Positions 5,750 to 62,789 of a stretch of DNA of 64,000 nt are shown one piece after another. The translations under genes and the position numbers were made by a program. Numbering within the stretch: the first letter of the stretch is position 1; each line of letters starts with the position of its first letter. The DNA is from Nanobdellota archaeon (lineage in GTDB: Archaea > Nanobdellota > Nanobdellia > Tiddalikarchaeales > Tiddalikarchaeaceae), in assembly GCA_016931175.1 (NCBI GenBank), contig JAFGFH010000022.1, positions 17,527 through 81,526 of the forward strand. The letters are read 5' to 3'. The notes beneath the pieces are model-generated. The model ran no database searches, was not told where the DNA came from, and saw nothing but the letters and a program-made list of their open reading frames with translations.

Positions 5750-6462
5750 TTCTTAACCACTTCTCTAACCTTTATTTCACTGTCCTTTTCTCCCACAACA
5801 AAGACGTAAGTCTTCATGGTTTCATAAACAGTTCCTTTGTCATTCTTCAGTATTACTCTGTCTTTGCTCACGCTTGCAAAATCTTTGAATCCTTGAATAA
5901 CTGCTAATTCTCCGGCGTGTTTACCGTGCATTACGAGAACCGTTGAATCCTTCTTCGCCGGCAAGTGCTTAACTATCTTCTTAGTTGTCAAATCCAATAA
6001 TATAGAATCCCCTGTCTTGTAAGAATCCTTCTTAACTATTATGTTCCTGCTGCTTGAACAGTTTAGTTGAATAATCCCTTTCTTCATCCTCTTCTTGTTT
6101 AAAATACTGAATAATTTCAATCCTGCTTCTTTAGCATCAATGTTTAATGGAATTATTCCTCCCTTATAGTCCAGAACTGCCCTGTAATATATCTTGTTGC
6201 TTGGTATTGAGATTGTATCAAATAATCCAACAGGGTATTTAACATCCTTAACAACAGAGTTGTCTACAAGAACTAGTTTATTATTAACTATTCTCTTGCA
6301 CTCTTTCAAATCATTAACCAAACCTAAATGGTCTCTTAACAAGACTATTAATGGAATGCTGAAGTCCTTCTTGTGAGGCCCTGGTGAAGGCCTTGCTACG
6401 AATGTGTTCGTCTTCTTTGCTAAATTCCATCTCTTTGGCGTGTTTACTCTCTTTAAATGCAT
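5746..6462 (-). CDS. rps4e: 30S ribosomal protein S4e (eS4)
   Basis: 238 aa. eS4 N-terminus (MHLKRVNTPKRWNLAKKTNTFVARPSPGPH) and KOW-like region. Confidence 0.94.
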   Translation of the reverse strand: MHLKRVNTPKRWNLAKKTNTFVARPSPGPHKKDFSIPLIVLLRDHLGLVNDLKECKRIVNNKLVLVDNSVVKDVKYPVGLFDTISIPSNKIYYRAVLDYKGGIIPLNIDAKEAGLKLFSILNKKRMKKGIIQLNCSSSRNIIVKKDSYKTGDSILLDLTTKKIVKHLPAKKDSTVLVMHGKHAGELAVIQGFKDFASVSKDRVILKNDKGTVYETMKTYVFVVGEKDSEIKVREVVKK

Positions 6463-6464
6463 AT

Positions 6465-6854
6465 TTATTTCACCTTCTCCGTTTTTTTAGTCTTGAATCT
6501 CTTCTTGTCGCTCAAGTCTAATTCTATTAATTGAACGTTTGAATAGTGTATTTTGAAATCAACTTTTGTTCCGTCTTTCTTCTCTAATTTTACTCCTTCA
6601 AGTAATAGTTTATAATTCCTCCTGTCAACTTTTTCAATCTTTGCCTCTTTGCCTTTGAATTGTCCCCTCATAATCTTAACCTTGTCGCCTTTTCTTGCTC
6701 GAACGCTTCTGACCTTGTAATGCTTCCTTAACTCCTTGCTTAAATTGCATTTCATAATATTCTGCTTAACGTGAAGCGGAGCATTAACTGCGTATTTTCT
6801 CTGCTTGCGTGGTTGCACGCTCTTATTCCATGATTTGCTGAAACTCTTTTTCAT
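6465..6854 (-). CDS. rpl24: 50S ribosomal protein L24 (uL24)
   Basis: 129 aa. KOW motif (KGDKVKIMRGQFKGKEAKIEKV). Confidence 0.94.
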   Translation of the reverse strand: MKKSFSKSWNKSVQPRKQRKYAVNAPLHVKQNIMKCNLSKELRKHYKVRSVRARKGDKVKIMRGQFKGKEAKIEKVDRRNYKLLLEGVKLEKKDGTKVDFKIHYSNVQLIELDLSDKKRFKTKKTEKVK

Positions 6855-13495: not shown

Positions 13496-14527
13496 ATGGA
13501 AGTTGATGAAGCGGTTGAGGAGTTAAGCAAGCTTAAAATCTTTGACCCTGACAAGTTCAAGGAGAAGCTGAGATTGTTAAAGGCTAAGCAGCCGCATATT
13601 TACTACGAAGTTATTAAGATAATGAACATCAGCGATGCTGATGTGAAACCTGTAAAAACTGCATCCGGGGACCCTTATAACTTGTTCAAGAAAGACACTT
13701 CAAAGATAAAAAAGGATGCTGGAGGGTTTGGAATCGCTGTTATTGCAACAATCCTTATAGGATTGGTTGGCATAGGCGCAGTCTTCATATTTTTGCTTGA
13801 TGTTCCTCTTGAAGCCCCAACTACTTTCAACGCTAACGAGTCTGTAAGCTTGGGATACCAATTATTTAATTCAATCAATAATTTGTATCTGCAGTACAGT
13901 TTTGACTATAACACTACTTCTTCAACAATAACTTACTCAACAGGAAGAGAGTATTATAAGATAAGCAGTGATTATTACACCTCTGCTATTTACTTCAACA
14001 CGTTTAACTGCGCACCTGTTTGTTCGCTTATAACAACGGACGGTTACATAATCTCCAGAAAAGAAGGAGACACTTTATATTTTGGTATTTACAGCGACTG
14101 CAGCGTCTGCTCTTGCGATGTTTACTCAATGACTGATGTTAATGATTTCTGGGCGCAGGGTGTTTTAAACTATTACGACGAGTTGTACTATTACGTCAAT
14201 AATGGCTACGTTATTAACAGCGACAGGGAAGATGTTTGGACTATTAACGGGGAACAATGCGCTCCAATGTTCTTTGACATAAGGGTTCCGAACGAGTTAA
14301 AAAACAGCGGTTTCTTTGGAGAAGAGCTTACAAGCTTAAGGTACGAGTTGTGCTTGAACAATGAAGGAGTGCCTCTTGCTCTTGCAAAGAACTCAGACTA
14401 TGAAACTTATAGTGATACCTTTGTAGCGTTTCTTGAATCAATGGATGATATAATAGGATTATCAACAATTAGTGACAAGACTTTGAATGAGTGGGACAGC
14501 GAACAGTTAACCTGCGTCTCTATTTAA
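13496..14527 (+). CDS. Membrane-anchored protein with Cys/Tyr-rich extracytoplasmic domain (hypothetical)
   Basis: 343 aa. Charged N-terminal segment, single TM helix (GFGIAVIATILIGLVGIGAVFIFLL), then a Tyr/Ser/Thr/Cys-rich domain (type II membrane protein architecture). Confidence 0.6.
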   Translation: MEVDEAVEELSKLKIFDPDKFKEKLRLLKAKQPHIYYEVIKIMNISDADVKPVKTASGDPYNLFKKDTSKIKKDAGGFGIAVIATILIGLVGIGAVFIFLLDVPLEAPTTFNANESVSLGYQLFNSINNLYLQYSFDYNTTSSTITYSTGREYYKISSDYYTSAIYFNTFNCAPVCSLITTDGYIISRKEGDTLYFGIYSDCSVCSCDVYSMTDVNDFWAQGVLNYYDELYYYVNNGYVINSDREDVWTINGEQCAPMFFDIRVPNELKNSGFFGEELTSLRYELCLNNEGVPLALAKNSDYETYSDTFVAFLESMDDIIGLSTISDKTLNEWDSEQLTCVSI

Positions 14528-28070: not shown

Positions 28071-28430
28071 ATGAGTTTCAAGAGTGTTTTGGATCTGGAT
28101 TTTTTAATGATGGATTTGTCACTAGTTTATGAGACGAATAGTGTGTGCAGGGAGGAGATTTTATACGCTGGCGGGAAGAAGATTATAGAAACCCATTATA
28201 CTGTAGAAGGTAAAATGTTCCAATTGAAAGAGAATGATAAGGGTTTTATTCTTAAGAGCAGTGATTCAGTTATTAAAGTTGATAACCTGCTTGAAGCAGT
28301 TAAAAGGGTTTACTTAAAGATTAACTGGAAGCGTTTCAAGAATCAGATAACAAGTGCTGGTTTTGACTGGGAAGAGTTCTACAAAGAGGTTAAGATTAAA
28401 AAACACATGATTAAAAAAGAAGAGATTTAA
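28071..28430 (+). CDS. Hypothetical protein (119 aa)
   Basis: Clean ORF. No motif recognised. Confidence 0.4.
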   Translation: MSFKSVLDLDFLMMDLSLVYETNSVCREEILYAGGKKIIETHYTVEGKMFQLKENDKGFILKSSDSVIKVDNLLEAVKRVYLKINWKRFKNQITSAGFDWEEFYKEVKIKKHMIKKEEI

Positions 28431-29773
28431 ATTACCTGCAAATTAAACAGGGAAAGTAATTCCTCTCTTGGCTTTATCTTTGACCACTCATACAAACTTC
28501 TAGCATCGTCTAACCTTTCTCTTTGAAACAAAGTTTTGTATAATTCTTGCACTACTTCCTTATTTAAATCTGGCTGAACACCTGACCACTCACTCAAATG
28601 TTTAGCCTCATGCATCCATCCTTTTTGAAACAAAGTTTTGAATCCTTCTTGCACTACTTCTTCATTAAAATTTGGCTGAACACCTGACCACTCACTCAAA
28701 AGTTTAGCATCACACATCCATCCTTTTTGAAACAAAGTTTTGTATAATTCTTGCACTATTTCCTCATTTAAATCTGGCTGAATCTTTGACCACTCACTCA
28801 AAAGTTTAGCCACATGCATCCATCCTTTTTGAAACAAAGTTTTGAATCCTTCTTGCACTACTTCTTCATTAAAATCTGGCTGAATCTTTGACCACTCACT
28901 CAAACTTTTAGCAGATTCTACCATTCCTTTTTGAAAAAAAGTTTTGTATAATTCTTGAACTAACTCATCTCTTGGCTGAATCTTTGACCACTCACTCAAA
29001 ACTTTAAACGTATCAAACTGTCTTTCTTGAAACAAAGTTTTGTATAATTCTTGCATGTAAGGTTTTACTTTTCTTAAATCAACCAATTCCTTGAATCCTT
29101 TGCTTGTAATATTATCCTCGCAGCCTAATAAAAAATTAACAAGATGAGTGTTAGCTCTTAACAAATTATTCTCATAAGTCACGTCACCCTCATCCAAAGA
29201 ATCATAATTTCTAAGCAGTGATTCAAGCCTTAAATTAACAACCTTCCTATTATTGCCATTAACTGCCAAACGATTAATTAACTGCTGGTATAACTTGTTA
29301 TCAAAGACATCAAAAGGCGAGTCTAATCCTAAAGCTTGATCGGTTAAATAATGATTAATGAAAAGTATGGCAGAATCAATATTAGCAGTCATCTTAACCT
29401 CATCACTGATTTGCGAATAATCACTCCCGTCTAAAGTCACTGCTTTATGAACGCAGTGAGGCAAACTGCTCAAAACATTAGATTCACCCGTATTATGATT
29501 ATGCTCGTAAGCGTACACACTAAAATGGTCCTCGTCAACATCAACTGCAAAACCAACCTCATTGCCTTCCTCCTCATCAAACAAACTAAGAACAGGACAA
29601 AGAATATACTCAACACCATTAATTGTTGCAGGCCTAACCATGAAATAAGAAGCATCATTAAAAGCATTAGAATTAACAATAGTCTTAAACAAGCCATTAC
29701 CAGAATACTTACTAACAATCTCACTCAAAGCCTCAGGATTTAAAGCCTGATTTAAAACTTCACGACTAATCAT
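28427..29773 (-). CDS. Tandem-repeat protein: ~240-aa unique N-terminal domain followed by six ~34-aa repeats (QELYKTLFQKGWMHEAKLLSEWSKIQPDLNEEVV-type)
   Basis: The protein shows 34-residue periodicity. The underlying DNA has ~102-bp near-identical tandem units with two alternating subtypes. Confidence 0.7.
   Translation of the reverse strand: MISREVLNQALNPEALSEIVSKYSGNGLFKTIVNSNAFNDASYFMVRPATINGVEYILCPVLSLFDEEEGNEVGFAVDVDEDHFSVYAYEHNHNTGESNVLSSLPHCVHKAVTLDGSDYSQISDEVKMTANIDSAILFINHYLTDQALGLDSPFDVFDNKLYQQLINRLAVNGNNRKVVNLRLESLLRNYDSLDEGDVTYENNLLRANTHLVNFLLGCEDNITSKGFKELVDLRKVKPYMQELYKTLFQERQFDTFKVLSEWSKIQPRDELVQELYKTFFQKGMVESAKSLSEWSKIQPDFNEEVVQEGFKTLFQKGWMHVAKLLSEWSKIQPDLNEEIVQELYKTLFQKGWMCDAKLLSEWSGVQPNFNEEVVQEGFKTLFQKGWMHEAKHLSEWSGVQPDLNKEVVQELYKTLFQRERLDDARSLYEWSKIKPREELLSLFNLQVI
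28522..29056. repeat. Coding tandem DNA repeat, ~5.3 copies of a ~102-bp unit (two alternating subtypes, effectively a ~204-bp higher-order unit)
   Basis: Recurring blocks ttgaaacaaagttttg(tataattc|aatccttc)ttgcacta...gaccactcactcaaa at ~102-bp spacing with roughly 85-95% identity by eye. Confidence 0.85.
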
Positions 29774-50780: not shown

Positions 50781-51383
50781 TTATTTTCTGCACTTTGCAT
50801 AAAGAGTTAATCCAAAAGGCAGCAAAAACCCTAAACTTATTAATTTGTTTTCAAAGGAGAGTATTAAATAAAATACTTTGTCTAAAAATTTTGGGAATAT
50901 TGACATGTCATCCGGTTTTTTATTATCTGGTTTTAATAATCTGAATAATATTATTAAAGGTGATAAAAACATGTTCCAGTACCCGAATTTTTCTATCCTA
51001 AAATTTTTAGTAAGAACATCATAAAGTCCATCACGAGTGTATCTTCTCTTATGTTCAAGCGCACTATCATGGCTGCTGTAAATAACAGGGTGTGCTGGAA
51101 CAGTCAATAAGAGTGTTCCTTTCTTTTTTAAAACCCTGCATACCTCTTTTATAACCTTATCATCTTTTTCAGTGTGTTCAAGAACATCAAAGAGTATAAC
51201 AATGTCAAAATAATTGCTGGGGTAAGAGATTTTCTCCGCATCACAAAATTTCTTTTCATAATAATAATCCTTTGGTATTAATTTTAAGACCTCTTTGTTT
51301 ATATCCGTGGCGTAAACTCTGCCATATTTCTTAAGCATTAATAAATCTCCTCCAGTTCCGACGCCTAAATCTAAAATCTTCAA
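50781..51383 (-). CDS. Class I SAM-dependent methyltransferase
   Basis: Motif I LDLGVGTGGD, acidic motif FDIVILFDVLEH, motif III LKKKGTLLLTVP. Appears to use a TTG start. Confidence 0.8.
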   Translation of the reverse strand: MKILDLGVGTGGDLLMLKKYGRVYATDINKEVLKLIPKDYYYEKKFCDAEKISYPSNYFDIVILFDVLEHTEKDDKVIKEVCRVLKKKGTLLLTVPAHPVIYSSHDSALEHKRRYTRDGLYDVLTKNFRIEKFGYWNMFLSPLIILFRLLKPDNKKPDDMSIFPKFLDKVFYLILSFENKLISLGFLLPFGLTLYAKCRK

Positions 51384-51543
51384 ATCTTTTACCTTCTCAG
51401 GAGATATTTGAAGGAGTTATGGTTTCTCATACCTATAGAGTTATCCTTTACAATAACTTCAGTTCTGGCATTCTGGAACGACCCGGGCATAGTTGAAATA
51501 GCAAACATAATCTTTTACAGATTCATTTAAAAAAAGAGTTAAT

Positions 51544-51987
51544 TTATTTTTTAAGTAAGTCTTTCATTAATCCTATTTCATATTCTTGCGCTTGAATTAT
51601 TGCTTGCGATAAATTTATTACTTCAGGGTCAAAGAGTTCAGCATTCTCACTTGTAAGTATTGCAGATGAATGGTGTGATATCATTGCAGCCATGTACTGG
51701 TCATCTGATATAAAAGTTTGATTTCTCAAAAAATACAGTGAAAATATAAAAACAATAATGCTTGAGAGTATGATAATATTATTTAGTTTCTTATCTTCAT
51801 ACATTTTTTCCATTACTAACATCATTGTTATCGCCATTGGAGAAACCATTAATAAAGTCATGTAAACCCTTGTTAAACTAAAATAAACATGACTAATATC
51901 TGCTACATTCAAAAACATAACAATATACATTATAACAAAAGATACAAGCAAATTAACTCCTAATCTTACATAATTCTGATTTTTCAC
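51544..51987 (-). CDS. Hypothetical membrane protein (147 aa, 3 TM)
   Basis: Clean ORF immediately left of the first cassette-boundary repeat. Confidence 0.5.
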   Translation of the reverse strand: MKNQNYVRLGVNLLVSFVIMYIVMFLNVADISHVYFSLTRVYMTLLMVSPMAITMMLVMEKMYEDKKLNNIIILSSIIVFIFSLYFLRNQTFISDDQYMAAMISHHSSAILTSENAELFDPEVINLSQAIIQAQEYEIGLMKDLLKK

Positions 51988-52032: not shown

Positions 52033-52098
52033 AAAAGACGCGCCCTGACTAAAAACAGCACTTAATGTCCAGTTTACGCAATGAAATGGAAAATGTAT
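52033..52098. repeat. Cassette-boundary repeat R1: ~60-nt element beginning with tRNA-Asp 3'-end core (gccctgact)
   Basis: aaaagacgcgccctgactAAaaacagcacttaatgtccagtttacgcaatgaaatggaaaa is nearly identical to the element at 54454-54519. The core matches the 3' end of tRNA-Asp at 57747-57759. Confidence 0.85.
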
Positions 52099-52123
52099 TA
52101 ATATATTATAACATTAATTATTT

Positions 52124-53035
52124 ATGTATTTTAAACAGAAGTTTGAGCCTAAAAAAGGAGTTATTCATGGTGCTGGCCAGGAGGGAACCCCTTTTAATTA
52201 CCCTGTTGATTTTAAGGATTACTGGGATAGTGTTGGTGAAAATAAGCCTCTGCTTTTTATGACGTATATCCAGCTCAAGTGGATTAATAAGAAATGGTTT
52301 GAGCTTACTAAAAAACAAGTTAAATATTTTCCAAATATTATTTTACAGATTGGTTTATCCATTAGTGATACTCATTCAGGAGAACCAGAAAAACATTATG
52401 AACAAGATGTTTTATCTGGGAAATTTGATAAGAATATTCAAGAGTTTTGTCAGGAGGTTAAGAAATTAAAAAGTCCTGTTTTTGTTAGATTAGGTTATGA
52501 GTTTAATGGTTTATCTTGGTATGGTTATCAACCCAATTCTTTTGTTAAAGCTTGGAGATACGTAATTGATAAGGTTAAAAAAGATAATGTTAATAATGTT
52601 GCTTGGGTGTGGCATTATTCTCCTGAAGGTGAAAAGAATTACATGGACTATTATCCGGGTGATGATTATGTTAATTGGTGGGGAACTACTTTATTTTTTA
52701 TGAGAGAGATAGAAAAAAGTAAAAAGTTTTTGAAGGATGCTGAGAATCACAAAAAACCTGTTATGATTTGTGAATCTTCAGCTGTTAATGTAACCACTCT
52801 TAAAGGTGAAGATAGTTGGCGGGAATGGTTTAAACCTTATTTTAATTATATTAAAACTAATCCAATAATTAAAGCTTTTTGTTATATTAATGGAAATTGG
52901 GCAGAAAAAGAAAAAATCTGGAAGGAATGGGGGGAATGCAGAATATCAAAAAACAAAACAGTAATGAGTAAATATAAAAAGGAATTAGAAAATAAAATCT
53001 ACATCCATAATAAAGACTATAAAAAAATTAAATAA
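52124..53035 (+). CDS. Glycoside hydrolase, family 26-like (beta-mannanase-type fold)
   Basis: 303 aa. GH26-like motifs: VFVRLGYEFNG (acid/base Glu region), WVWHYSP...YYPGDDYVNWWGTTLF, and PVMICESSA (nucleophile Glu region). Confidence 0.6.
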   Translation: MYFKQKFEPKKGVIHGAGQEGTPFNYPVDFKDYWDSVGENKPLLFMTYIQLKWINKKWFELTKKQVKYFPNIILQIGLSISDTHSGEPEKHYEQDVLSGKFDKNIQEFCQEVKKLKSPVFVRLGYEFNGLSWYGYQPNSFVKAWRYVIDKVKKDNVNNVAWVWHYSPEGEKNYMDYYPGDDYVNWWGTTLFFMREIEKSKKFLKDAENHKKPVMICESSAVNVTTLKGEDSWREWFKPYFNYIKTNPIIKAFCYINGNWAEKEKIWKEWGECRISKNKTVMSKYKKELENKIYIHNKDYKKIK

Positions 53036-53048
53036 ATAATAAGTTTAT

Positions 53049-53058
53049 CGCCCTGACT
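53049..53058. repeat. Cassette-boundary repeat R2 (core cgccctgact only)
   Basis: 10-nt copy of the tRNA-Asp 3'-end core lying between the convergent stops of the 52124 and 53079 genes. Confidence 0.6.
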
Positions 53059-53078
53059 CTTCTTTACTGTTTTGTAAA

Positions 53079-54404
53079 TTAAAAACGCTGTTCCACAAAG
53101 TTATCAAATATTTTTGTAACCTCATCAAAGGTAACAGGTCTTGCTATTAAAAAAACTGGTTTCTTATACGAACCATCATACTCTGTTAAAGGAATTAATG
53201 TTTTCGCTCTTAACGCTTCGCTTTCTTCAAATTGTTTTTTGGATAAGATAAAATTTGTTTTAAATGCGTTTTCTGTGTAATCTTCATATGGTTTATTATC
53301 AATAACAAAAATGTTGTCTGATGAATTTGGATGTATTTGCACTAATATTTTATCATCCTCGCTTAAACCTATTTGACATAAGGTCATTCCAGGAATTTCT
53401 AAATATTCTTTTCTATCTTTAGATTCATCAACGATTCCTTGACCACAATATATAAAACTATACCTACTTAAAAACAATCCTCTACTTTGAGTAATTGCAT
53501 TTTTATCAAAACCCTTTAGTTTGGAGCAATCACAATTAACTTCTCTGAATTTCTTGATTTTTGATGCATCTGCCCAAGCGTATAATTTTCCAAATTTTTC
53601 TAAATAAGGTGTTTTTTCTGGTAAAGTAATTTTTTGGTCTTGGTTAATTGGGGTTCTTAAAATTTTTTCCAAAAATTCATTTTTCATCCAATCAATTGCT
53701 GAATTTTTAATAGTATTCCATGATAATTGATGAGGTATTCCTGCCATGTCCAAGAATTCTGTTAATTTGTGTGGATTTTTAATTATTTGAGAGTAAAAAA
53801 TGAAACTTTTAAATCTCTCTCTTGGGTCTTTACTCTCTTTGTCTAAAAATCCGAGTTTATCAAAAATCGGCTCTAATTTTGTGTCATAGTCTCCCACACA
53901 ATCTTTATACATCCAATGCAAATCATCCCTATAAGAATCCCCTTTGTAACCTCTTCCAGCATATCTAACAGCACTGTTTGTAAACGTGAATCCGTCTTTT
54001 TTAACAAAGATTCCGCTGTCATCGTTATATAATTTTATTTCCAAGTCTAAGGGCTTAATATTAATTTCGGAAGGATTTGCAACATCCCTTATAAATTTAT
54101 TCCAATCTTTGCCTGTTTGTCTGCAATTCCATAAGTAAAAATCATTTGATTGAATTTTAAAGATATAATTAAAAATTCCTTGACTTATTGTAACTTCAAT
54201 ATTGCCCAATCCGGGTATTAAAATATTATCTTTAACAAAATCGTCTGGAGAATGCTTATAAGCATCTAATCTTCGTGGAAGACGCTTGCTTATTTCTAAA
54301 CATATATTATTTGATACTTCATCAATATCATAAGCTCTAAAACTTTCAGAACCTAACTTATCTTTATTCTCTTCTGATACAATTGAATGTGAAATATTAT
54401 TCAT
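53079..54404 (-). CDS. Hypothetical protein (441 aa), cassette-encoded
   Basis: Clean, long ORF. No motif recognised. Asn/Lys/Ile-rich. Confidence 0.5.
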   Translation of the reverse strand: MNNISHSIVSEENKDKLGSESFRAYDIDEVSNNICLEISKRLPRRLDAYKHSPDDFVKDNILIPGLGNIEVTISQGIFNYIFKIQSNDFYLWNCRQTGKDWNKFIRDVANPSEINIKPLDLEIKLYNDDSGIFVKKDGFTFTNSAVRYAGRGYKGDSYRDDLHWMYKDCVGDYDTKLEPIFDKLGFLDKESKDPRERFKSFIFYSQIIKNPHKLTEFLDMAGIPHQLSWNTIKNSAIDWMKNEFLEKILRTPINQDQKITLPEKTPYLEKFGKLYAWADASKIKKFREVNCDCSKLKGFDKNAITQSRGLFLSRYSFIYCGQGIVDESKDRKEYLEIPGMTLCQIGLSEDDKILVQIHPNSSDNIFVIDNKPYEDYTENAFKTNFILSKKQFEESEALRAKTLIPLTEYDGSYKKPVFLIARPVTFDEVTKIFDNFVEQRF

Positions 54405-54453
54405 TAAACACTCTATTAGAAAAATCTATTTAAAAACTTTACTAAATATAAAG

Positions 54454-54519
54454 AAAAGACGCGCCCTGACTGGAAACAGCACTTAATGTCCAGTTTACGC
54501 AATGAAATGGAAAAGTATT
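54454..54519. repeat. Cassette-boundary repeat R3: ~60-nt element with tRNA-Asp 3'-end core (gccctgactgg)
   Basis: aaaagacgcgccctgactGGaaacagcacttaatgtccagtttacgcaatgaaatggaaaa is a near-identical copy of R1. Confidence 0.85.
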
Positions 54520-54545
54520 TTATAACTTATAATTATTGTTAAAAT

Positions 54546-54890
54546 ATGAAATGTAGTCATAGTTTTTATTCTAAAAATGGAGAAGCTGTTTGTAGTAAAT
54601 GTGGAGAAAATAGAGGTAAAGTTCCTGAGTTTCAAGAATTAGACTATAATGAAATAGGAGAATTTGCTGTTCGTATAAGAAAATTAAGTGATGAAGAAAT
54701 TGATGAAGTTTGGTATCTTTGCGGTTTTATTATTAGTGATCATCGAAGTGATTTGAAAGCTCTCCGAGATTATGACATTAAACAAATAAGAAAAAGTGTT
54801 CAAGGAGCTTATGGCGTATTAGAAATATTATTACAAGAAACTTTTGTTGAAGACTTTAGAAAAAACTTGAAAAAAGTAGAAAATAAGTAA
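54546..54890 (+). CDS. Small zinc-ribbon protein (114 aa), cassette-encoded
   Basis: N-terminal C-x-H...C-x2-C (CSHSFYSKNGEAVCSKCG) then an acidic helical region. Confidence 0.45.
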   Translation: MKCSHSFYSKNGEAVCSKCGENRGKVPEFQELDYNEIGEFAVRIRKLSDEEIDEVWYLCGFIISDHRSDLKALRDYDIKQIRKSVQGAYGVLEILLQETFVEDFRKNLKKVENK

Positions 54891-54896
54891 AAGGCT

Positions 54897-54908
54897 GCCC
54901 TGACTGGG
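54897..54908. repeat. Cassette-boundary repeat R4 (gccctgactggg)
   Basis: 12-nt exact copy of the tRNA-Asp 3' end between the convergent stops of the 54546 and 55015 genes. Confidence 0.7.
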
Positions 54909-55014
54909 CACTATGAAAAATTCACAACGCCCTACATTTGAGCGTAGTTTTTTAATGCTATACTAATATTTATACAGAGATGGGATTTATAGTTTTTGTT
55001 TAGGTGACCACAAA

Positions 55015-55944
55015 TTATCTTTTCTTCTTTTTCGTGGACACCTTTTTCAATGTCTTTTTGTATTGTTTTATTAAGAATTTCATTGTTGGTTTTAAATCCT
55101 GATTTTTAGAATATTGTTGCAGGACAAAATAGTACTCTTTTCTGTCTTCCAAGATTATGTTCAATGGAGGATAATTATTCTTAAGCAAGATATAGTTCAA
55201 TAATAATCTTCCAACCCTTCCATTACCATCTTGAAAAGGGTGAATGTGTTCAAATTGGTTATGAATTATTGCTGCCAAAGCCAAAGGTTTAAACTTAGTT
55301 TTATTCTTTTTATACCAACCCACTAAATCTTTCAAATAACTCATTAATTTACGTTTAGGAACTCCTTTATGAACTATTCCTCCCTTTCCATCTGTGATAA
55401 CAACTTCAACATTTCTATATTCTCCTGCAAATGATTTAGTGCCTTTAAAACAAATCTTATGAATTTTTTTAATAAATTCAAGTGATATATCTTGTTTACT
55501 TTTTTTTATAAATTCAACGGCTTTTGCAACATTTTTTGTTTCAATCTCTCCATCATCTTGTGGAACTTTTTTATTTTCTAATAAGTCTTTAACTTCACCT
55601 AATTCAACAGTTGAACCTTCAATAGCATTAGTGTTATAAACAAACTCTTCAGTGAACCTCTTCCAGTCAATCTTATCTAAATGAATAATTTTAATCTCTT
55701 TTTCATAATCATTAATCTTATTAATCTGATTCTTAGTTAAACTAAAATCAAAAACATCAGTTTTTAACTCATCCAAAACTTGCTTTAATTCTTCCTTAGC
55801 TTTATTTTTTGCAGATTCTAACCCATTCTTTGTTAGATTTTTTCCAAGATATTTTCTAATCTTCTGGACTTTGCCTTGCTCCCTATATGAATATACAAGA
55901 TAATATTTTACATCCTTACCTGCTTTTCTTTTCTCAACATACAT
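55015..55944 (-). CDS. Fic/Doc-family protein (putative AMPylase-type toxin/regulator)
   Basis: 309 aa with canonical Fic motif HPFxDGNGRxxR (HPFQDGNGRVGRLL). Confidence 0.85.
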   Translation of the reverse strand: MYVEKRKAGKDVKYYLVYSYREQGKVQKIRKYLGKNLTKNGLESAKNKAKEELKQVLDELKTDVFDFSLTKNQINKINDYEKEIKIIHLDKIDWKRFTEEFVYNTNAIEGSTVELGEVKDLLENKKVPQDDGEIETKNVAKAVEFIKKSKQDISLEFIKKIHKICFKGTKSFAGEYRNVEVVITDGKGGIVHKGVPKRKLMSYLKDLVGWYKKNKTKFKPLALAAIIHNQFEHIHPFQDGNGRVGRLLLNYILLKNNYPPLNIILEDRKEYYFVLQQYSKNQDLKPTMKFLIKQYKKTLKKVSTKKKKR

Positions 55945-55953
55945 ACAACATAG

Positions 55954-55997
55954 TAGGTGCCCACATTTTATAAACTTATCTTAAAGTGTGGTCACCT
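55954..55997. promoter_or_regulatory. Putative Fic promoter: imperfect 12-bp inverted repeat (taggtgcccaca ... tgtggtcaccta) bracketing a TATA-like box (ttttataaactt)
   Basis: Dyad arms at 55954-55965 and 55987-55997 flank ttttataaactt about 10-45 nt upstream of the Fic start. A third half-site copy (taggtgaccacaa, 55001-55013) lies just past the Fic stop. Confidence 0.45.
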
Positions 55998-56016
55998 ATA
56001 AATAAAAATTCAGAAG

Positions 56017-56030
56017 CGCCCTGACTGGGA
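56017..56030. repeat. Cassette-boundary repeat R5 (cgccctgactggga)
   Basis: 14-nt exact copy of the tRNA-Asp 3' end between the Fic start and the 56076 gene stop. Confidence 0.75.
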
Positions 56031-56075
56031 AGAGCAAACTCTGTTCTGATTAAGATTAATTTTATATTATAATAA

Positions 56076-57575
56076 TTACCAATCTATACACTCACTTGTA
56101 TCTTCAAGTGTCCAAGAATCAAATGTTTGTTCAAAGAATTGTTTATTCATTATTTCTTCATTTGTTTTAAATATTTTATATGCTTCATAAACATCAAGAT
56201 ATTCATTAAATGTTCCTTCATAAGAGTATTCTTGTCTAAAATAAATTGGTATTCCATTTTCATCTAAACATATATTATATGTTAAACTATTGAAAATTTC
56301 AACATCCCGGAAGTATTGATAATATAGTGTTGGAGGAGTTATTTCAAAACTAAACATTTGACAAATATTTCCATTTATATTTGAATCTTCTGATGTAAAA
56401 CTAATTACATAATCATTGGTTATAAAATAATTTAATTCTTCATATTTTGATAATACACTATCTGAACCATAATCATCTGGTTCATTAAAATTCAATATAG
56501 GACATGAACAATAACTACAAGTTGATTGAATACCATCATATAATAAATTACCTTCTTTTTTACTTAACATTGCTTCATTTTCAGCATCTAATGAACACTC
56601 ATTATTATTACAACCATAACTATCCCATTCTAATCCTGATTTGAAATCTCCATTATTTAAATTTAGGTAATTTTCAATAATAGAATAATATAAGTCAATA
56701 TCATTTACATCATATAAATTTGTTGTTGTTGAATTATGCTGTATTTCATAATATAAATAATTATCAGATATTGTAATAAAATTATCATAAAAAGTAGTAA
56801 AATCCGAACCTACTGTTATTGTTGGAGTAGTTTCTGTAACAACTTCAGTAAAATCACTACAACTGTAAGTATTTTCTAAAAACCATGAACACACAGTTTT
56901 TGTTGTTTCAATATTAGAATCTACACATATAACTTGTTTTCCTAAATCATTATGTGTTAAAAGTAAACTATAAGTGCTTGTTAATTCTTCATAATCATAA
57001 TCTTCATTAATAAATCCCCACCAATCATTACATTCAAATGCTTGAATAAAATCTTGACAATATGAACTTACTGGACTTGTTGGACAAGTATCAAATTTAT
57101 ATCTAAGTAATTGAATTAATATATCATCTGATGAAATATTATATTCTAATAATTGTGTATATGAATTATTATAACTGATATTGTAAAGTGGGACGGGTCC
57201 TAACATTGTTATATTTTCAATAACTGGATTAGGTATTTGTTGTGTTATTAAATCTGAAGTTTGAAAAATATTACTTAAACCAATAGTGTTGAATAATATA
57301 AATCCTGAAACTCCTATAACTATAATTATCCCCATTATTATAAAGGGTAAATAGTTTGGTTTTTTCTTTTCTTCTTTCTTTCCAATATTTCTAATTTCAT
57401 CAAGTGAAATTTCTTCAGATTTAGTTTCTTTTTGTTCTGGTTTAGATTCTTCTGTTTTTGGTTCAGCAACGGGTTTTGGTTGAATCGGCAAATATTCTTT
57501 GCAATCAAAACAATAATGTCTATCATATTGTTCTATATAACTTGCTTCTTTACCGCATTTAGGACATACAACCAT
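56076..57575 (-). CDS. Zinc-ribbon / single-TM / large Asn-Tyr-Ser-Cys-rich ectodomain protein (hypothetical)
   Basis: 499 aa. N-terminal CPKCG...CFDC ribbon, Lys/Glu-rich linker, TM helix (LPFIIMGIIIVIGVSGFILF), then a ~400-aa Cys-containing domain. Confidence 0.55.
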   Translation of the reverse strand: MVVCPKCGKEASYIEQYDRHYCFDCKEYLPIQPKPVAEPKTEESKPEQKETKSEEISLDEIRNIGKKEEKKKPNYLPFIIMGIIIVIGVSGFILFNTIGLSNIFQTSDLITQQIPNPVIENITMLGPVPLYNISYNNSYTQLLEYNISSDDILIQLLRYKFDTCPTSPVSSYCQDFIQAFECNDWWGFINEDYDYEELTSTYSLLLTHNDLGKQVICVDSNIETTKTVCSWFLENTYSCSDFTEVVTETTPTITVGSDFTTFYDNFITISDNYLYYEIQHNSTTTNLYDVNDIDLYYSIIENYLNLNNGDFKSGLEWDSYGCNNNECSLDAENEAMLSKKEGNLLYDGIQSTCSYCSCPILNFNEPDDYGSDSVLSKYEELNYFITNDYVISFTSEDSNINGNICQMFSFEITPPTLYYQYFRDVEIFNSLTYNICLDENGIPIYFRQEYSYEGTFNEYLDVYEAYKIFKTNEEIMNKQFFEQTFDSWTLEDTSECIDW

Positions 57576-57746
57576 TAAATAATTGATTAACTAATGATTT
57601 TTAATGTTTTTCTTAATAAATCCCTATCAAAATTATCTTTTTGTTTTTAAAACATAAAGTTAAAAAGTAATACATTTGTCATACTCATATAGAGAAGCAA
57701 AGTGAGGGGTTACACAACAACGGCATAACCCGAACACTCTGAACCA

Positions 57747-57818
57747 CGCCCTGACTGGGATTCGAACCCAGGTTATCGGCGTGACAGACCAATGTCCTAA
57801 CCACTAGACTATCAGGGC
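57747..57818 (-). tRNA. tRNA-Asp (anticodon GTC)
   Basis: Reverse complement GCCCTGATAGTCTAGTGGTTAGGACATTGGTCTGTCACGCCGATAACCTGGGTTCGAATCCCAGTCAGGGCG folds as a cloverleaf. Anticodon loop CUGUCAC, T-arm CTGGG-TTCGAAT-CCCAG, discriminator G. Its 3' 12-14 nt are the repeated cassette-boundary core. Confidence 0.85.
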
Positions 57819-57860
57819 AATATTAGAATTATGGGATTATAGTGTTTTTAAAGTTTTTTC

Positions 57861-59279
57861 TTAATCTTCGGTTTCAATTCTTTCTTTCCTAGGCTCGATA
57901 TCAACCATTATCGCGTTAGTAGCTACTGTGGATTGCACTTTGCCTTCAGCGTCCAAGACTTCAACAATCGTCTTGTCCAGTCTTAACTCACCTATGTAGC
58001 CAACCTTGCTCTTCATCCTGTAAGAGAGTATGATATTCTCATTAGGTTTTAACTTGCCAAGATTCCATAAAATAAAACTGCCTCCTTCGCTCTTCTTAAC
58101 CTCGCCGTGCAAAGTGCCGTAATCAAAAACGTCAGAAATAATTGGTGGCAAAGGCTCCATAACCCTCACGCGGTTAACATTATTCTTGCTGACATTAGAG
58201 ATGTTCAAGACAACCTTGAAAGAGATATTATTAGGTCCTGACTTGAAATCAAAGATTTCACGAGAAACGGAAACCATCCTAGTAAAGTAATAAAACAAGT
58301 AAACCAAACCAATAATAAGGAAAGGTAATAAGTATAAGACTGAATAATTCAACTCGTAAGATAATTCAATACTCTCGCCAGGAGATAGTTCAGGAACGTG
58401 GAAGATAATGCTATTACTGATTAGGGTATAATCAGTGCTCGCGCCTGAAATGAAATAAGAATCAAAAGCGTTAAGCGGGACTTCGTAATCAAAACCTTGA
58501 ATAATCAATGTTCCCTTGTTAGAAATTAATATACCATTAGTTGTAGTAACAATACTAGTGGATGAAACCGACTCTGTTGAATTCTGAGCATAACCAATTA
58601 TGCTGAACTGTTCAACCTTGCTGCCGAAACTAGTATCATACCACATAATACCCACTCGGACATTAGCAGTTGTTGGAGGCAGATTAGAATCAAGAACTAT
58701 TGGAATACTAACACTATTATTCCCGAAAGGAGTGTTCACAACTTCAAGACTATAATATAAGGATGTGCCGTCGAGTGCGTAAACTTCAACAGTCGCGTAA
58801 ACCTTTTGAATCAAATCACTGTAACCATTCTCATAATTTAAATTAATATTAAAGGCTTGGCGCGGGTCAACCTGGGAAGGAACATCAATGCTGTTGAAAA
58901 CGAAATACTTTTCCGGCCCTTCAACAGTGTAACTAATAGTCTGACTAGTCTGGATAATACCGTCAATGTCAAAATAAACACTATCATAATACCTGCCCTC
59001 CTTAGCTGAATCAGAAACAGTGGCTTTTAAAACAATAATTGAGAAACCGTTCGCTGGAACAGACACTATATAACCAGGTATGAAACTCGGATTTAACTTG
59101 TCGCTAATCATGAACATAATAACTTGTTTTTCAACGCTTGAAGGGTTAGAAAATGAAATGTTATACTCAACCATTTCACCAGGTTTAACACTAGCATCCA
59201 CTGGGTTTATTTGAATATTAAAACAGAAACCTGAACTAATAAAGGTTAATAATAAGATTAAAGCAAACCACTTCTTCAT
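57861..59279 (-). CDS. Secreted/cell-surface protein with C-terminal TM anchor (hypothetical; S-layer/adhesin-like)
   Basis: 472 aa. Signal peptide (MKKWFALILLLTFISSGF), beta-rich Ser/Thr/Asn-rich body, C-terminal TM (LPFLIIGLVYLFYYF) with a short cytoplasmic tail. Confidence 0.55.
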   Translation of the reverse strand: MKKWFALILLLTFISSGFCFNIQINPVDASVKPGEMVEYNISFSNPSSVEKQVIMFMISDKLNPSFIPGYIVSVPANGFSIIVLKATVSDSAKEGRYYDSVYFDIDGIIQTSQTISYTVEGPEKYFVFNSIDVPSQVDPRQAFNINLNYENGYSDLIQKVYATVEVYALDGTSLYYSLEVVNTPFGNNSVSIPIVLDSNLPPTTANVRVGIMWYDTSFGSKVEQFSIIGYAQNSTESVSSTSIVTTTNGILISNKGTLIIQGFDYEVPLNAFDSYFISGASTDYTLISNSIIFHVPELSPGESIELSYELNYSVLYLLPFLIIGLVYLFYYFTRMVSVSREIFDFKSGPNNISFKVVLNISNVSKNNVNRVRVMEPLPPIISDVFDYGTLHGEVKKSEGGSFILWNLGKLKPNENIILSYRMKSKVGYIGELRLDKTIVEVLDAEGKVQSTVATNAIMVDIEPRKERIETED

Positions 59280-59315
59280 ACTTAGTAAGTATTAACCCAT
59301 AGTTTTTAAATTCTT

Positions 59316-60038
59316 TTACAAACAAGGCTTAAACACGTTTCTAACATTGGATTCTATGATTTTCTCAGCCTCTGAAAGCCTTAAACCCTTAATTTCAGCA
59401 ATCTTCTCATAAGACTTAACAACGTTTAAAGGAGTATTCCTTTCAAACTTCCACAAGTAAGGACTGTCAGTCTCGCAAAACAAGCGGTTAATGGGAGTAT
59501 TACTAACCAAGTACTGGTATTGCTCAGAGTAAACCACTGAAGGAGGAATGCTGAAAAAGACTTGCTTTAATTCCAAAGCCTTACTAAATGCTTTCTTACT
59601 TCCTGAAAACGAGTGCAGAATAACCGGCACTTTAACCTTATCAACCACTTCAAGCACTTCTAAATGCGCTTTTCTTGAATGAACGATTAAAGGCTTCCCT
59701 AACTCTTCAGCCACACCAATCATTTTCTTGAAAACTTCCTCCTGGCCATTTAAATCCTTCAAGTAATCCAATCCAACCTCTCCAACTGCCAAGAAATTAT
59801 CCTTATTACTTCTTAACTGGTGAACTACTCTCTCATCAAAACTGCAAGTAGGATGCATCCCAAGACAAGGAAATACGTTATTATAATTAGACGCCAAGTT
59901 TAAGACTCTAGTATTAGAATCGTAATCCAAGCCAGTCTCAAAAATTATAATATTTTTATTCCCGCATTCTTTAATAACTTCAGCCCTGTCCTTATTAAAA
60001 GCCTCATCCAGCAAGTGGCAATGAATGTCAAAAAACAT
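59316..60038 (-). CDS. tatD: TatD-family metal-dependent deoxyribonuclease/hydrolase
   Basis: 240 aa. TatD motifs (FDIHCHL, GEVGLDY, HSRKA, ILHSFSG, CETDSPYL). Confidence 0.88.
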   Translation of the reverse strand: MFFDIHCHLLDEAFNKDRAEVIKECGNKNIIIFETGLDYDSNTRVLNLASNYNNVFPCLGMHPTCSFDERVVHQLRSNKDNFLAVGEVGLDYLKDLNGQEEVFKKMIGVAEELGKPLIVHSRKAHLEVLEVVDKVKVPVILHSFSGSKKAFSKALELKQVFFSIPPSVVYSEQYQYLVSNTPINRLFCETDSPYLWKFERNTPLNVVKSYEKIAEIKGLRLSEAEKIIESNVRNVFKPCL

Positions 60039-60079
60039 AATAGTAAACTATAAAACTGCATATTTATTAAGAATTCCTT

Positions 60080-60970
60080 ATGAAGGGAGAAGTGCTTATA
60101 ATACTATTATTACTAATAGGATTAGCATGGGTCTTCTATAATTATACTTGGACGTTCTACTTGTTCACTGCAATGATAATAGTATTAATCATTTACATAT
60201 TCTTTGTTAAAAAATACGACGAGTTCGAAAGGGGAATAATATTCAGGATGGGCAAGTTTAACAGAGTAGCTGGTCCGGGATGGGTTATAGTAATACCCTT
60301 TTTTGAAAAAGAATACAAGAGGATAGATGCGAGAACTCAAATGATAGACTTGGTTATAAACGAGTCATTCACAGCAGACGATTTAAGGCTTGAAGTTGAA
60401 GGATTATTCTATTACAGGATAATAGACCCTGAAAAGGCTTTACTGAAGATTGAAAATTACGAGAAGGGAATAAAGAACTTGATAACGTCAGAGACTAGGA
60501 ATACTATAGGCAGTTTGAACATGAGGGAAGTCTTTGCCAACATTAACAAATTAAACAGTATATTAACAGACAGGATAAGGCATAACAGCTGGAAATGGGG
60601 AATAGACTTTAGCATGGTCCAGTTGAAAAGCGTAACTCCTCCAATAGAAATAGCAGAAGCAATAGAGTCAAAAGAAGTAGCAGCTCAGGAGTTGCAGGCG
60701 CAGAGGTTCAAGGCTGAAGCCCAGAAGGTTACAATCAGCGCTTTAGGAAAAGCAAGCGAGAACTTAACTGACCAGGCAATGATGTACTTGTACATACAAG
60801 CACTTAAGGAATTAGGGCGGGGTGAAGGAAGCAAAATATTATTCCCTGCAGAGTTCATGAAAATCGTTGACGGAATAGGAAGCAGCCTGAAAAAAGACAG
60901 TTTGAAAGGATTAGACACTAACGCTTTAATACAGCAGGTTAAAGACAAGATACTTGAAAGCCAGAAGTAA
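60080..60970 (+). CDS. SPFH/band-7 (stomatin/prohibitin-like) membrane protein
   Basis: 296 aa. N-terminal TM then the SPFH core (RGIIFRMGKFNRVAGPGWVIVIPFFE...RTQMIDL). No adjacent NfeD partner recognised. Confidence 0.85.
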   Translation: MKGEVLIILLLLIGLAWVFYNYTWTFYLFTAMIIVLIIYIFFVKKYDEFERGIIFRMGKFNRVAGPGWVIVIPFFEKEYKRIDARTQMIDLVINESFTADDLRLEVEGLFYYRIIDPEKALLKIENYEKGIKNLITSETRNTIGSLNMREVFANINKLNSILTDRIRHNSWKWGIDFSMVQLKSVTPPIEIAEAIESKEVAAQELQAQRFKAEAQKVTISALGKASENLTDQAMMYLYIQALKELGRGEGSKILFPAEFMKIVDGIGSSLKKDSLKGLDTNALIQQVKDKILESQK

Positions 60971-61004
60971 AGGTTTATAAATAAGATATTTTTTCTTAAA
61001 TAAG

Positions 61005-61313
61005 ATGCAAGCGTCGATTAAAATTATTTCAGAAAACAGCATAAATGCTTTCCTAGAAAACGCTTCACTTGAGAGTTTTAGAAAAGCAGATTTTGAAAAA
61101 AAAGACTTAAAAGGTTATGAAAATATTCTGCAATTCTTAGAAATAGAAGAGAATAAAACAAACGTTAATAATGATGATTTATTAACTATTGCAGGAATAT
61201 CCTGCCTTAAACATTACAGGCTTGACAAGGAAATGCCTTTCATCGCGTTAAGATACGAAGGTTCTGTCTACGCAACCTATTTCAGTAAAACAATTATAAG
61301 AATCATACAATAA
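61005..61313 (+). CDS. Hypothetical protein (102 aa)
   Basis: Clean ORF. No motif recognised. Confidence 0.4.
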   Translation: MQASIKIISENSINAFLENASLESFRKADFEKKDLKGYENILQFLEIEENKTNVNNDDLLTIAGISCLKHYRLDKEMPFIALRYEGSVYATYFSKTIIRIIQ

Positions 61314-61970
61314 TTACTCTTTAATCTTCTTAAACAATCCAGCTAAAGCTTTTGCTTCTTTCTTGCGTATAAAGGCGCGGTTCATCAAATTCTCCATAAT
61401 TACCTTAAAATTTTCAAAGTTGTGCACTCTCTCACCTGCTGCTTCCAAGCGCAGCAGGACTGCCCTGCGCTCCCTCTTATTCGCAACGTGTTTAACCTCT
61501 GCTTTTTCCTTAAACAACTCGTACAATATTATTGCCAAAGCATGACTAATATTAAGCGTCTTATAAGACTTATTGGCAGGAATGTGAACCAGTAAGTCGC
61601 ACGCTTCAAGTTCGGGATTAAACAAACCCTTATCCTCCCTGCCTAAAACAATAGAATAGTGAAGTTTTGAATCAATATTCTTAGTTAATTGTTCAGGAGT
61701 TAAGTAAACCCTCCTAAGATTATGGCCTGTTCCAGTCTTAGCGCTCGTAGCTATCAAATAATCTGCGCCTACATCGTTTAATGAATCAAGTATCTTGGCA
61801 GATTCTAAAATCTTAACTGAACGCATAGCTCTTGCTTTACTCTCATTACTTAAAACTTCACAAGAAGGGTTTACGAGAAAGAGTTTAGAAACCCCGAAGT
61901 TAGCCATTACTCTCGCAATAGCTCCTAAGTTACCGCTCGTCTCAGCGCCAACAACTGTAACACTAATCAT
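61314..61970 (-). CDS. SPOUT-superfamily (SpoU/TrmH/TrmJ-like) RNA 2'-O-methyltransferase
   Basis: 218 aa. SpoU motifs (VVGAETSGNLGAIARVMANFG, VLGREDKGL, NISHALAIILYE). Confidence 0.78.
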   Translation of the reverse strand: MISVTVVGAETSGNLGAIARVMANFGVSKLFLVNPSCEVLSNESKARAMRSVKILESAKILDSLNDVGADYLIATSAKTGTGHNLRRVYLTPEQLTKNIDSKLHYSIVLGREDKGLFNPELEACDLLVHIPANKSYKTLNISHALAIILYELFKEKAEVKHVANKRERRAVLLRLEAAGERVHNFENFKVIMENLMNRAFIRKKEAKALAGLFKKIKE

Positions 61971-61997
61971 TAAAAAACATTAACTGGTTTAATATTT

Positions 61998-62789
61998 ATG
62001 AATTTATTGACTCACGTAATATTTGGTTTGGCATTAAGCGAGTGTTTAAGTCTTAACATTTTCTACGTAATACTTGGAGCAGTAATTCCTGACTTTGATT
62101 ACTTCTTCGGGGTTGGGCATAGGACTGTAATGCACTCCTTACTGTTCATAATAATCATTTCTTTCTTAATCTATTACAAGAATAAGAGGAAAGGAATAAG
62201 CTTATTCATAGGCTTCTCTTCGCACTTAATACTTGACACTTTAACTACTCAAGGAGTCATGCTCTTATGGCCTTTGAAAACCTTTTTCTCTTACAATTTA
62301 TTCAACAGCACTGCTAATGCTCCGAACTTTACAGTAATAATAATTAGTTTTGTTTTAATAATTAACAAGGATATTATACTTGAAAAATTATCAAATTTTA
62401 AAAGCAGTAATGTGAGAATAGCAACCTTTTCCATAATAGTCTTATTATTAATCCCTGCAATATTCTACACGTGGTACGAAGACAGCAAATGCTTTACTGC
62501 ATCAATAAATGATTTATTAAAAAATCCTGATTATTACAATAAAGCTTGTGTTATAGTAAACGGTGTTGTTTGCTCAATTGTTGAGGATTACACCAGTTCT
62601 GGTTCAGTAGAGTATAAAATATTCAACATTTGCAGTGAAGAAGACGAGCTTCTCGTCTGGTCATTGAAGAGTATAACTCCATACTTAGAATATTATGATA
62701 ATATAACCATAACAGGGATTTTCACAACCAAGTATTATGAATCCTCAGGCTACGAGTTGTACATGATTAAAAGTGTAAGGAAAAATTAA
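61998..62789 (+). CDS. DUF457 (YdjM-like membrane-bound metal-dependent hydrolase) domain protein with C-terminal extension
   Basis: N-terminal ~130 aa match the DUF457 pattern (MNLLTHVIFGLAL...PDFDYFFGVGHRTVMHSLL...SHLILDTLTTQGVMLLWPL). The additional ~130 aa C-terminal domain is unassigned. Confidence 0.68.
   Translation: MNLLTHVIFGLALSECLSLNIFYVILGAVIPDFDYFFGVGHRTVMHSLLFIIIISFLIYYKNKRKGISLFIGFSSHLILDTLTTQGVMLLWPLKTFFSYNLFNSTANAPNFTVIIISFVLIINKDIILEKLSNFKSSNVRIATFSIIVLLLIPAIFYTWYEDSKCFTASINDLLKNPDYYNKACVIVNGVVCSIVEDYTSSGSVEYKIFNICSEEDELLVWSLKSITPYLEYYDNITITGIFTTKYYESSGYELYMIKSVRKN

Follow-up and report, generated by a model that had tools for sequence, protein, structure and literature searches.

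The sequence under study (hereafter the window) is a 64,000 nt stretch of contig JAFGFH010000022.1 from a Nanobdellota archaeon (locus tags JW791_*), and bears the markers of an archaeal chromosome: a ribosomal-protein operon, RNA polymerase subunits, EF-1alpha, EF-2 and RtcB. At 51.5-57.5 kb its GC content is 24-31% vs 33-38% on either side, and to the right of this region lies an intact tRNA-Asp(GTC) gene. The low-GC island holds a row of five genes, c1 to c5, which are separated by short copies (cores) of the 3′ end of that tRNA. Two of these junctions, termed R1 and R3, form part of a longer, nearly perfect repeat upstream of the plus-strand genes c1 and c3, and it is this pair that is considered herein. 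A first-pass annotation had described it either as a recombination site resembling integron attC, or as a mobile promoter or 5′ untranslated region (5′-UTR) module. The features of the locus, with junctions numbered J1 to J6 from left to right, are as follows.

52033-52111, plus strand: R1, which is junction J1; 8-nt left flank AAAAGACG, core CGCCCTGACT at 52041-52050
52053-52089, plus strand: arm of R1, 37 nt, then GGAAAA and the TATA-like ATTAATAT (52097-52104), with the c1 start at 52124
52124-53035, plus strand: c1 (JW791_04480), 303 aa, GH26-like glycosyl hydrolase; unit J1-J2, 1008 bp
53049-53058, plus strand: J2, core CGCCCTGACT, no arm; 13 nt past the c1 stop and 20 nt before the c2 stop
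53079-54404, minus strand: c2, 441 aa, no assigned family; unit J2-J3, 1413 bp
54454-54532, plus strand: R3, which is junction J3; laid out as R1, left flank AAAAGACG, core CGCCCTGACTGG at 54462-54473
right part of R3, plus strand: 37-nt arm identical to that of R1, then GGAAAA and the TATA-like TTTTATAA (54518-54525), with the c3 start at 54546
54546-54890, plus strand: c3 (JW791_04490), 114 aa, ORFan; unit J3-J4, 434 bp
54897-54908, plus strand: J4, core GCCCTGACTGGG, no arm; 6 nt past the c3 stop
55015-55944, minus strand: c4, 309 aa, Fic/DOC-family, resembling SoFic / PDC-S04; unit J4-J5, 1121 bp
56017-56030, plus strand: J5, core CGCCCTGACTGGGA, 14 nt identical to the tRNA
56076-57575, minus strand: c5, 499 aa, N-terminal zinc ribbon and membrane segment; unit J5-J6, 1730 bp
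57747-57818, minus strand: intact tRNA-Asp(GTC) (ARAGORN and Rfam); its 3′ end, CGCCCTGACTGGGA on the plus strand at 57747-57760, forms J6

A tRNA-Asp 3′ end repeated along the island

The repeated core derives from tRNA-Asp, specifically from its 3′ end. For the 9-mer GCCCTGACT, the window contains seven occurrences compared with 0.25 expected, and six of these are found on the plus strand at 52042-57756, the last being inside the tRNA itself. All six cores, between 52041 and 57760, share the same orientation, with identity to the tRNA extending over 10 nt at both J1 (52041) and J2 (53049), 12 nt at J3 (54462) and J4 (54897), and 14 nt at J5 (56017). Read as its reverse complement, the CGCCCTGACT carried by both R1 and R3 spans the discriminator base, acceptor strand and first T-stem base of tRNA-Asp, and thus the earlier proposal that the element begins with a tRNA-derived core, which matches the 3′ end of tRNA-Asp(GTC), is well founded. 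Only this end is repeated; no other part of tRNA-Asp, nor any part of the window's other two tRNAs, recurs in this manner, and a comparison of 51.5-58 kb with Rfam (E ≤ 1) returned the tRNA as its sole match. A candidate for a seventh, decayed junction to the left of the DUF305 gene (51479-51503, 64%) was set aside, since nothing sets it apart from background when the whole window is scanned.

Between the six cores lie five units, c1-c5, of the sizes listed above. Each contains one complete open reading frame (ORF), with gaps of 6-171 nt between ORF and core. The cargo is accessory in kind, comprising a GH26 hydrolase, an ORFan, a Fic protein and two proteins without assigned function, and the first-pass description of the R1/R3 element as cassette-associated sequence holds, since it is tied to these inserted genes.

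With regard to the repeat itself, a repeat search finds 52033-52111 and 54454-54532 as a 79-nt direct repeat of 89% identity and 2421 nt spacing. Over the first 61 nt (52033-52093 and 54454-54514) the sole difference is AA at 52051-52052 vs GG at 54472-54473, so that the two copies are indeed identical over about 60 nt apart from this one position, as had been stated. The 61-nt block is nonetheless not the limit of the similarity, which runs on both to the left and to the right. Beyond it there is a 1-nt indel, followed by gapped but recognisable similarity as far as the ATGs at 52124 and 54546, and the ~40 nt to the left of the shared left flank are about 65-70% identical between R1 and R3 (13/20 anchored, p = 0.006). 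The copies as first delimited end 25-26 nt before these two ATGs, in keeping with the 25-30 nt that had been given for their distance from the plus-strand ORFs.

Each copy displays the same order on the plus strand: a T-rich flank (reverse complement CGTCTTTT..), the tRNA-derived core, the 37-nt arm, GGAAAA and a TATA-like box. The conserved arm reads AAACAGCACTTAATGTCCAGTTTACGCAATGAAATGG, and a 30-nt arm sequence has exactly two occurrences in the window with 3 mismatches allowed, where none is expected. When a 63-mer was scanned over the whole window, the partner copy matched at 57/63 positions and the next-best, unrelated site at 32/63. Directly left of the core at J1 and J3, a stretch of 8 nt (reverse complement CGTCTTTT) resembles the native tRNA-Asp flank, CGTTTTTT, of the relative L016, and the earlier assertion that none of the element is tRNA flank is therefore only partly right. 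A separate idea, that the arm is a decayed copy of a longer stretch of the tRNA (T arm, anticodon stem), was rejected; alignment past the core is no better than for shuffled sequences (p = 0.13), and the anchored identity of J3 to the tRNA is 11/32 (p = 0.14).

An independent check of the sequence was available from the Logan assembly of run SRR13394437, in which two contigs match window positions 54474-56242 and 57061-62487 exactly (L001 and L012, respectively). Together they cover the right part of R3, J4, J5 and the tRNA. The assembly breaks precisely at the start of the repeated block in the second copy, as a true repeat would be expected to cause.

The right end of the repeat fits a predicted promoter. 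The TATA-like boxes within it start at -27 from the ATGs of both c1 and c3 and are B recognition element (BRE)/TATA-like, reading GGAAAA(T)GT-ATTAATAT for c1 and GGAAAAGT-ATTTTATAA for c3. In a set of 36 upstream regions from the window, such boxes begin most often at -32 to -26 relative to the start codon, which suggests that transcripts in this organism are for the most part leaderless. The right ends of R1 and R3 have the attributes of archaeal leaderless promoters, with a box 25-30 nt upstream and a purine-rich BRE. The arm lies upstream of this promoter, and is unlikely to form part of the c1 or c3 transcript. On the other side, the genes that read leftward (the DUF305 gene and c2) have a TATA-like box at -31/-30, situated in the T-rich left flank. 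As such, the mobile promoter part of the earlier alternative is consistent with the BRE/TATA-like sequence at the right end, but the 5′-UTR part is unlikely, because the conserved arm is upstream of the TATA box of seemingly leaderless genes.

Probable site-specific recombination at the tRNA-Asp gene

The nearest relatives reached have TatD proteins that are just 52-61% identical to that of the window. In L013/L014 (two contigs of one lineage), L016 and L017 (TatD 54-55%), the order SpoU, Band_7, TatD, a surface protein of ~460 aa and tRNA-Asp is kept, and the genes after tRNA-Asp differ wholly from those in the window and from one another. In L013/L014 (12519-13843) the sequence after the tRNA encodes a 396-aa tyrosine integrase (PF00589, E = 1.7e-21) with a C-terminal zinc ribbon, starting 60 nt after tRNA-Asp. 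The far att site of this integrase element was not found within 8 kb, and no relatives of the integrase were found in IMG/VR. In L016 (11931-12147) the tRNA is followed, 145 nt downstream, by a second, slightly diverged copy of its 3′ end, which has the same T-rich flank. Taken together, the integrase of L013/L014 and the second tRNA end of L016 mark the orthologous tRNA-Asp end as a recombination target in this archaeal group. A further three contigs end in or near this region, with L015 stopping about 90 nt beyond the gene that in L013 comes before the tRNA, L023 inside the surface-protein gene and L024 18 nt after that gene; the locus may thus be hard to assemble (variable or repeated) in those populations too.

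The window therefore presents direct repeats of the 3′ end of an intact tRNA, located downstream of it in a single orientation, with foreign DNA between them, which is the pattern produced by tandem accretion. Accordingly, R1 and R3 would each be a copy of an attachment-site junction that remained after site-specific recombination at the tRNA-Asp 3′ end, a reading to which we assign a probability of roughly 70%. The first-pass suggestion of a recombination site in general is likewise the most plausible account of what the element is.

Under such a mechanism, circular DNAs with a core-bearing attP would integrate serially at the tRNA-Asp end, or at a displaced copy of it. A tyrosine integrase encoded outside the island would perform the integrations and, in a system that still operates, would have to be supplied in trans; the array may just as well be a fixed relic. 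Each integration would restore the tRNA and push older units outward, with the array running from c5, next to the tRNA, to c1. At both R1 and R3, the same 37-nt arm, derived from the element, would adjoin the core on the right and be followed by a BRE/TATA promoter and a putatively leaderless gene, c1 or c3, and the arm may be a candidate recombinase-binding arm. As their left flanks are also similar, R1 and R3 form direct repeats of ~61-120 nt around a two-gene segment of 2421 bp (c1, J2 and c2). This segment could have entered an existing arm-core-flank site, or could leave it, as one circle, by site-specific or homologous recombination, or it may have been acquired by homologous exchange between arrays.

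A number of observations weigh against this interpretation. The arm is clear at only 2/6 junctions, J1 and J3, whilst J2 and J4 possess the core alone, and a single uniform attP therefore cannot explain all of the junctions. At J5 the right side is weakly arm-like (17/32 anchored, p about 0.001), partly from its longer tRNA identity, and local alignment does not recover this likeness. The cores are short, at 10-14 nt, and beyond them the arm bears no significant resemblance to the tRNA. Units of one intact gene each are also unusually tidy for decayed integrative elements. No integrase or recombinase was found in the 64 kb (Pfam on the cassette ORFs and on the unknown ORFs scanned, 20 window ORFs), and a tblastn comparison of the window with the L013 integrase gave a best E-value of 0.011. 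Neither a second arm-bearing genome, a circular form nor an empty site in a close relative was found, amongst relatives at 52-61% TatD identity of which the two closest have contigs that end before the tRNA. Finally, c1 and c2 are not confirmed in the independent Logan contigs retrieved.

Alternative explanations for the R1/R3 pair

The strongest of the alternatives is plain local duplication, whereby a ~120-nt intergenic region with divergent promoters and a displaced tRNA end was copied through replication slippage, unequal crossing-over or gene conversion, and the arm would have no role in site-specific recombination. The searches for further copies bear directly on this. Exact or degenerate patterns of the arm, and of core plus arm, have no match in GTDB representative genomes or IMG/VR, and in the Joint Genome Institute (JGI) metagenomes they return only nine unrelated, high-GC chance matches. 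The 3′ half of tRNA-Asp is likewise without a match in GTDB representatives or IMG/VR, the flank on the c5 side has none in IMG/VR, and blastn against phages and plasmids gives AT-rich chance matches only. A more widespread element was thus not encountered; in every collection searched the 61-nt block is found only at these two places, both within the island, and therefore local duplication or recombination history stays a live alternative. A duplication also accommodates the continuation of similarity past the core on both sides, spanning two promoters, and recent gene conversion would fit a near-perfect central 61 nt beside flanks of about 65-70% identity. It leaves unexplained, however, the four other cores of the same orientation that bound single genes, as well as the start of the identical block at the core region. 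On balance, we regard it as improbable as a complete explanation, though it deserves more weight than any other rival. The two views are also compatible, as a duplicated att junction is still an att junction.

A bolder version of tandem accretion, marginally less credible than local duplication, would have the island as a working gene-capture platform on a tRNA gene, integron-like in function but built differently. Tiny circles, each comprising a single gene with its promoter and a tRNA-Asp-type core, to which the 37-nt arm may or may not be attached, would be inserted at and excised from the tRNA end by an integrase encoded elsewhere or on a visiting element, and the 61-nt block would be the recombination site of one cassette family. 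Tidy single-gene units with their own promoters, the lack of any integrase remnant and the DPANN host leave room for such a cassette-style capture system.

Less probable again is a shared cis-regulatory module, in which the 37-nt arm would be an operator or upstream activating site, kept by selection, that co-regulates c1, c3 and perhaps the DUF305 gene and c2. The position of the arm is suitable, at about -35 to -72 from the starts and directly upstream of BRE/TATA in two divergent promoter regions, and it is perfectly conserved beside diverged flanks. Against this, c1 (a GH26 hydrolase) and c3 (an ORFan) are unrelated, the arm is without a strong dyad, the dyad that does exist is broken in R1, and there is no further copy in the 64 kb. 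Regulatory and attachment-site roles are, moreover, not mutually exclusive.

The resemblance to integron attC sites fares worst. Here the 60-mer would fold as a bulged single-strand hairpin for an IntI-like integrase, within an archaeal integron array, and there is some initial appeal to this: the cassettes are single-gene, integrons and attC clusters have been reported in Nanoarchaeota metagenome-assembled genomes (MAGs) (PMC9668308), and a stem of GCG/CGC plus CTGG/CCAG can be drawn for R3. The imperfect dyad that had been described for both copies (GCG..CTGG-16-CCAG..CGC) is intact in the second only, the first having CTAA in place of CTGG; this half of the CTGG/CCAG stem is lost from R1 because AA/GG, the only difference between the copies, falls there. 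Folding on both strands, which had been proposed as the means of checking the idea, reveals nothing beyond shuffled controls, with z scores of +0.68 to -1.42 for single-strand DNA (66-mers, both copies) and +0.58 to -1.72 for RNA (91-92 nt). The positive control comprised the 137-nt repeats of L021, a contig of a Methanobacterium sp. MAG (GCA_028700095.1 JAQVTJ010000074.1), which scored z = -4.3 and -4.6, with 0/200 shuffles folding as well; the test can therefore detect hairpins, and R1 and R3 have none. No RYYYAAC/GTTRRRY boxes (R′′/R′) occur within -80 to +90 nt of any of the six junctions, and the sole paired R boxes in 51.9-57.9 kb lie within the Fic coding sequence. Furthermore, the element is found 5′ of c1 and c3, rather than at the 3′ end of every cassette, and J2 and J4 lack the arm; the core that is conserved corresponds to a tRNA end and is not that of an attC, and no intI, or indeed any recombinase, was found in the window. 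The attC reading is therefore refuted as far as sequence can show, and we give it next to no credence. A short dyad inside an att junction should, by extension, not be taken as attC. A miniature inverted-repeat transposable element (MITE) or insertion sequence fares no better, as neither R1 nor R3 is enclosed by a pair of inverted repeats and there is no transposase in the vicinity.

The locus used as the folding control is of some note in its own right. The two L021 repeats (5288-5424 and 6430-6566) are direct, 93% identical and spaced by 1142 nt, and they bracket the closest annotated homologue of c1 (GH26, 63%). Each folds as a long, imperfect single-strand DNA hairpin, and no canonical R boxes are visible by eye. 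The arrangement resembles a cassette of one gene flanked by palindromes of an attC-like or MITE-like type.

Known tandem islands and the cargo genes

Comparable arrangements have been described in other organisms. In Dehalococcoides, the boundaries of tandem islands are marked by a 20-bp copy of the 3′ end of ssrA, an extra conserved 15-bp motif that does not match ssrA is located beside the repeat, and 15 islands without integration genes have been read as cis-mobilizable elements (PMC3146451). The concept of accretion, and of cis-mobilizable elements (CIME), together with the streptococcal tandems formed by these and by integrative and conjugative (ICE) or integrative and mobilizable (IME) elements, has been reviewed (PMC5704250). 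The window is like these systems in having an intact RNA gene followed by units that end in its 3′-end repeat, all in one orientation, as well as an additional motif next to the repeat with no match in the RNA gene, many units without integration genes, low GC content and a break in synteny. It is unlike them in that its units are just 0.43-1.7 kb with exactly one intact gene each, that no unit harbours an integrase, that the host belongs to the DPANN archaea and that the arm is present at some junctions only. Known tandem islands are generally much larger than this. The kind of event is thus already known, as tandem accretion at a tRNA gene, whilst very small single-gene units are unusual.

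In Prochlorococcus, partial tRNA copies separate neighbouring elements and more partial tRNAs are scattered in islands (bioRxiv 10.1101/2020.12.28.424599). These tycheposons share with the present locus a streamlined genome, new cargo that displaces older cargo at a tRNA gene, partial tRNA separators and adaptive or defence-like cargo, but they possess their own tyrosine recombinase and replication module, whereas here no recombinase, replication gene or gene fragment is found between the cores. With integrons and arrays of the CALIN type (clusters of attC sites lacking integron-integrases), which also occur as attC arrays in Nanoarchaeota MAGs (PMC9668308), the island has in common a row of promoter-proximal, mostly single-gene cassettes without an integrase, a repeated recombination-type site and possible mobilisation in trans. 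It differs in having no attC structure, R boxes, intI, attI or cassette promoter (Pc), in that its core is of the double-strand type and copied from a tRNA gene, and in that each cassette has a promoter of its own, with both orientations represented.

The gain and loss of accessory genes in genome-reduced symbiotic archaea, such as the Nanoarchaeota, is poorly documented. At this locus tRNA-Asp appears as a repeated landing site for foreign genes, with units the size of integron cassettes bounded by copies of the tRNA end. Should these units prove individually mobile, they would represent a second, structurally different route to cassette-style gene shuffling; should they not, the island would be a further example of tandem accretion at a tRNA gene. 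If it were truly a capture platform, a genome-reduced DPANN archaeon would have a cheap means of swapping accessory genes.

With respect to the individual cargo genes, the best non-self homologues of c1 are 63-64% identical to it, that of the Methanobacterium sp. MAG being at 63%, and neither core nor arm is present in the contigs that carry such homologues (L018-L022). The product of c2 has no Pfam, NCBIfam or PADLOC match, nor is there a Pfam match in its longer homologues, and the family is rare, with 113 representative homologues among 1.84 billion. Its AlphaFold model is confident (predicted local distance difference test, pLDDT, 86; predicted template modelling score, pTM, 0.83), without a significant fold match in the PDB; the best of the non-significant matches are KptA/Tpt1-type ADP-ribosyl/phosphotransferases. 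For c3, the only match among 5.8 billion proteins is itself. c5 has a paralogue in the core genome, a 343-aa protein at 13496-14527 (plus strand), 42 kb away. The two share 32% identity over about 190 aa, in a cysteine-rich C-terminal domain, and neither is above a Pfam threshold.

The surroundings of the Fic gene c4 contain the motif TAGGTGMCCACA, which is found three times in the window vs 0.25 expected, always around this gene: at 55001-55012 (plus strand), 55954-55965 (plus) and 55987-55998 (minus). One copy lies 2 nt beyond the c4 stop, and the other two form an inverted repeat that brackets a TATA-like box upstream of the start. The motif is probably an operator, as predicted from this arrangement, private to the c4 unit.

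To the left of J1, the DUF305/CopM-like gene (51544-51987) has a GC content of 26% and may be foreign too, with no core copy on its left side. It is adjoined by a class I methyltransferase ORF (50781-51543, minus strand) that has a TTG start directly at the SAM (S-adenosylmethionine)-binding motif and three in-frame stops upstream, because of which the gene looks N-terminally decayed or internally started. Elsewhere in the window, a 448-aa protein without a meaningful family match (28427-29773, minus strand) displays several tandem repeats of ~27 residues (..VQELYKTLFQKGW..AK.LSEWSKIQPD.NEE..).

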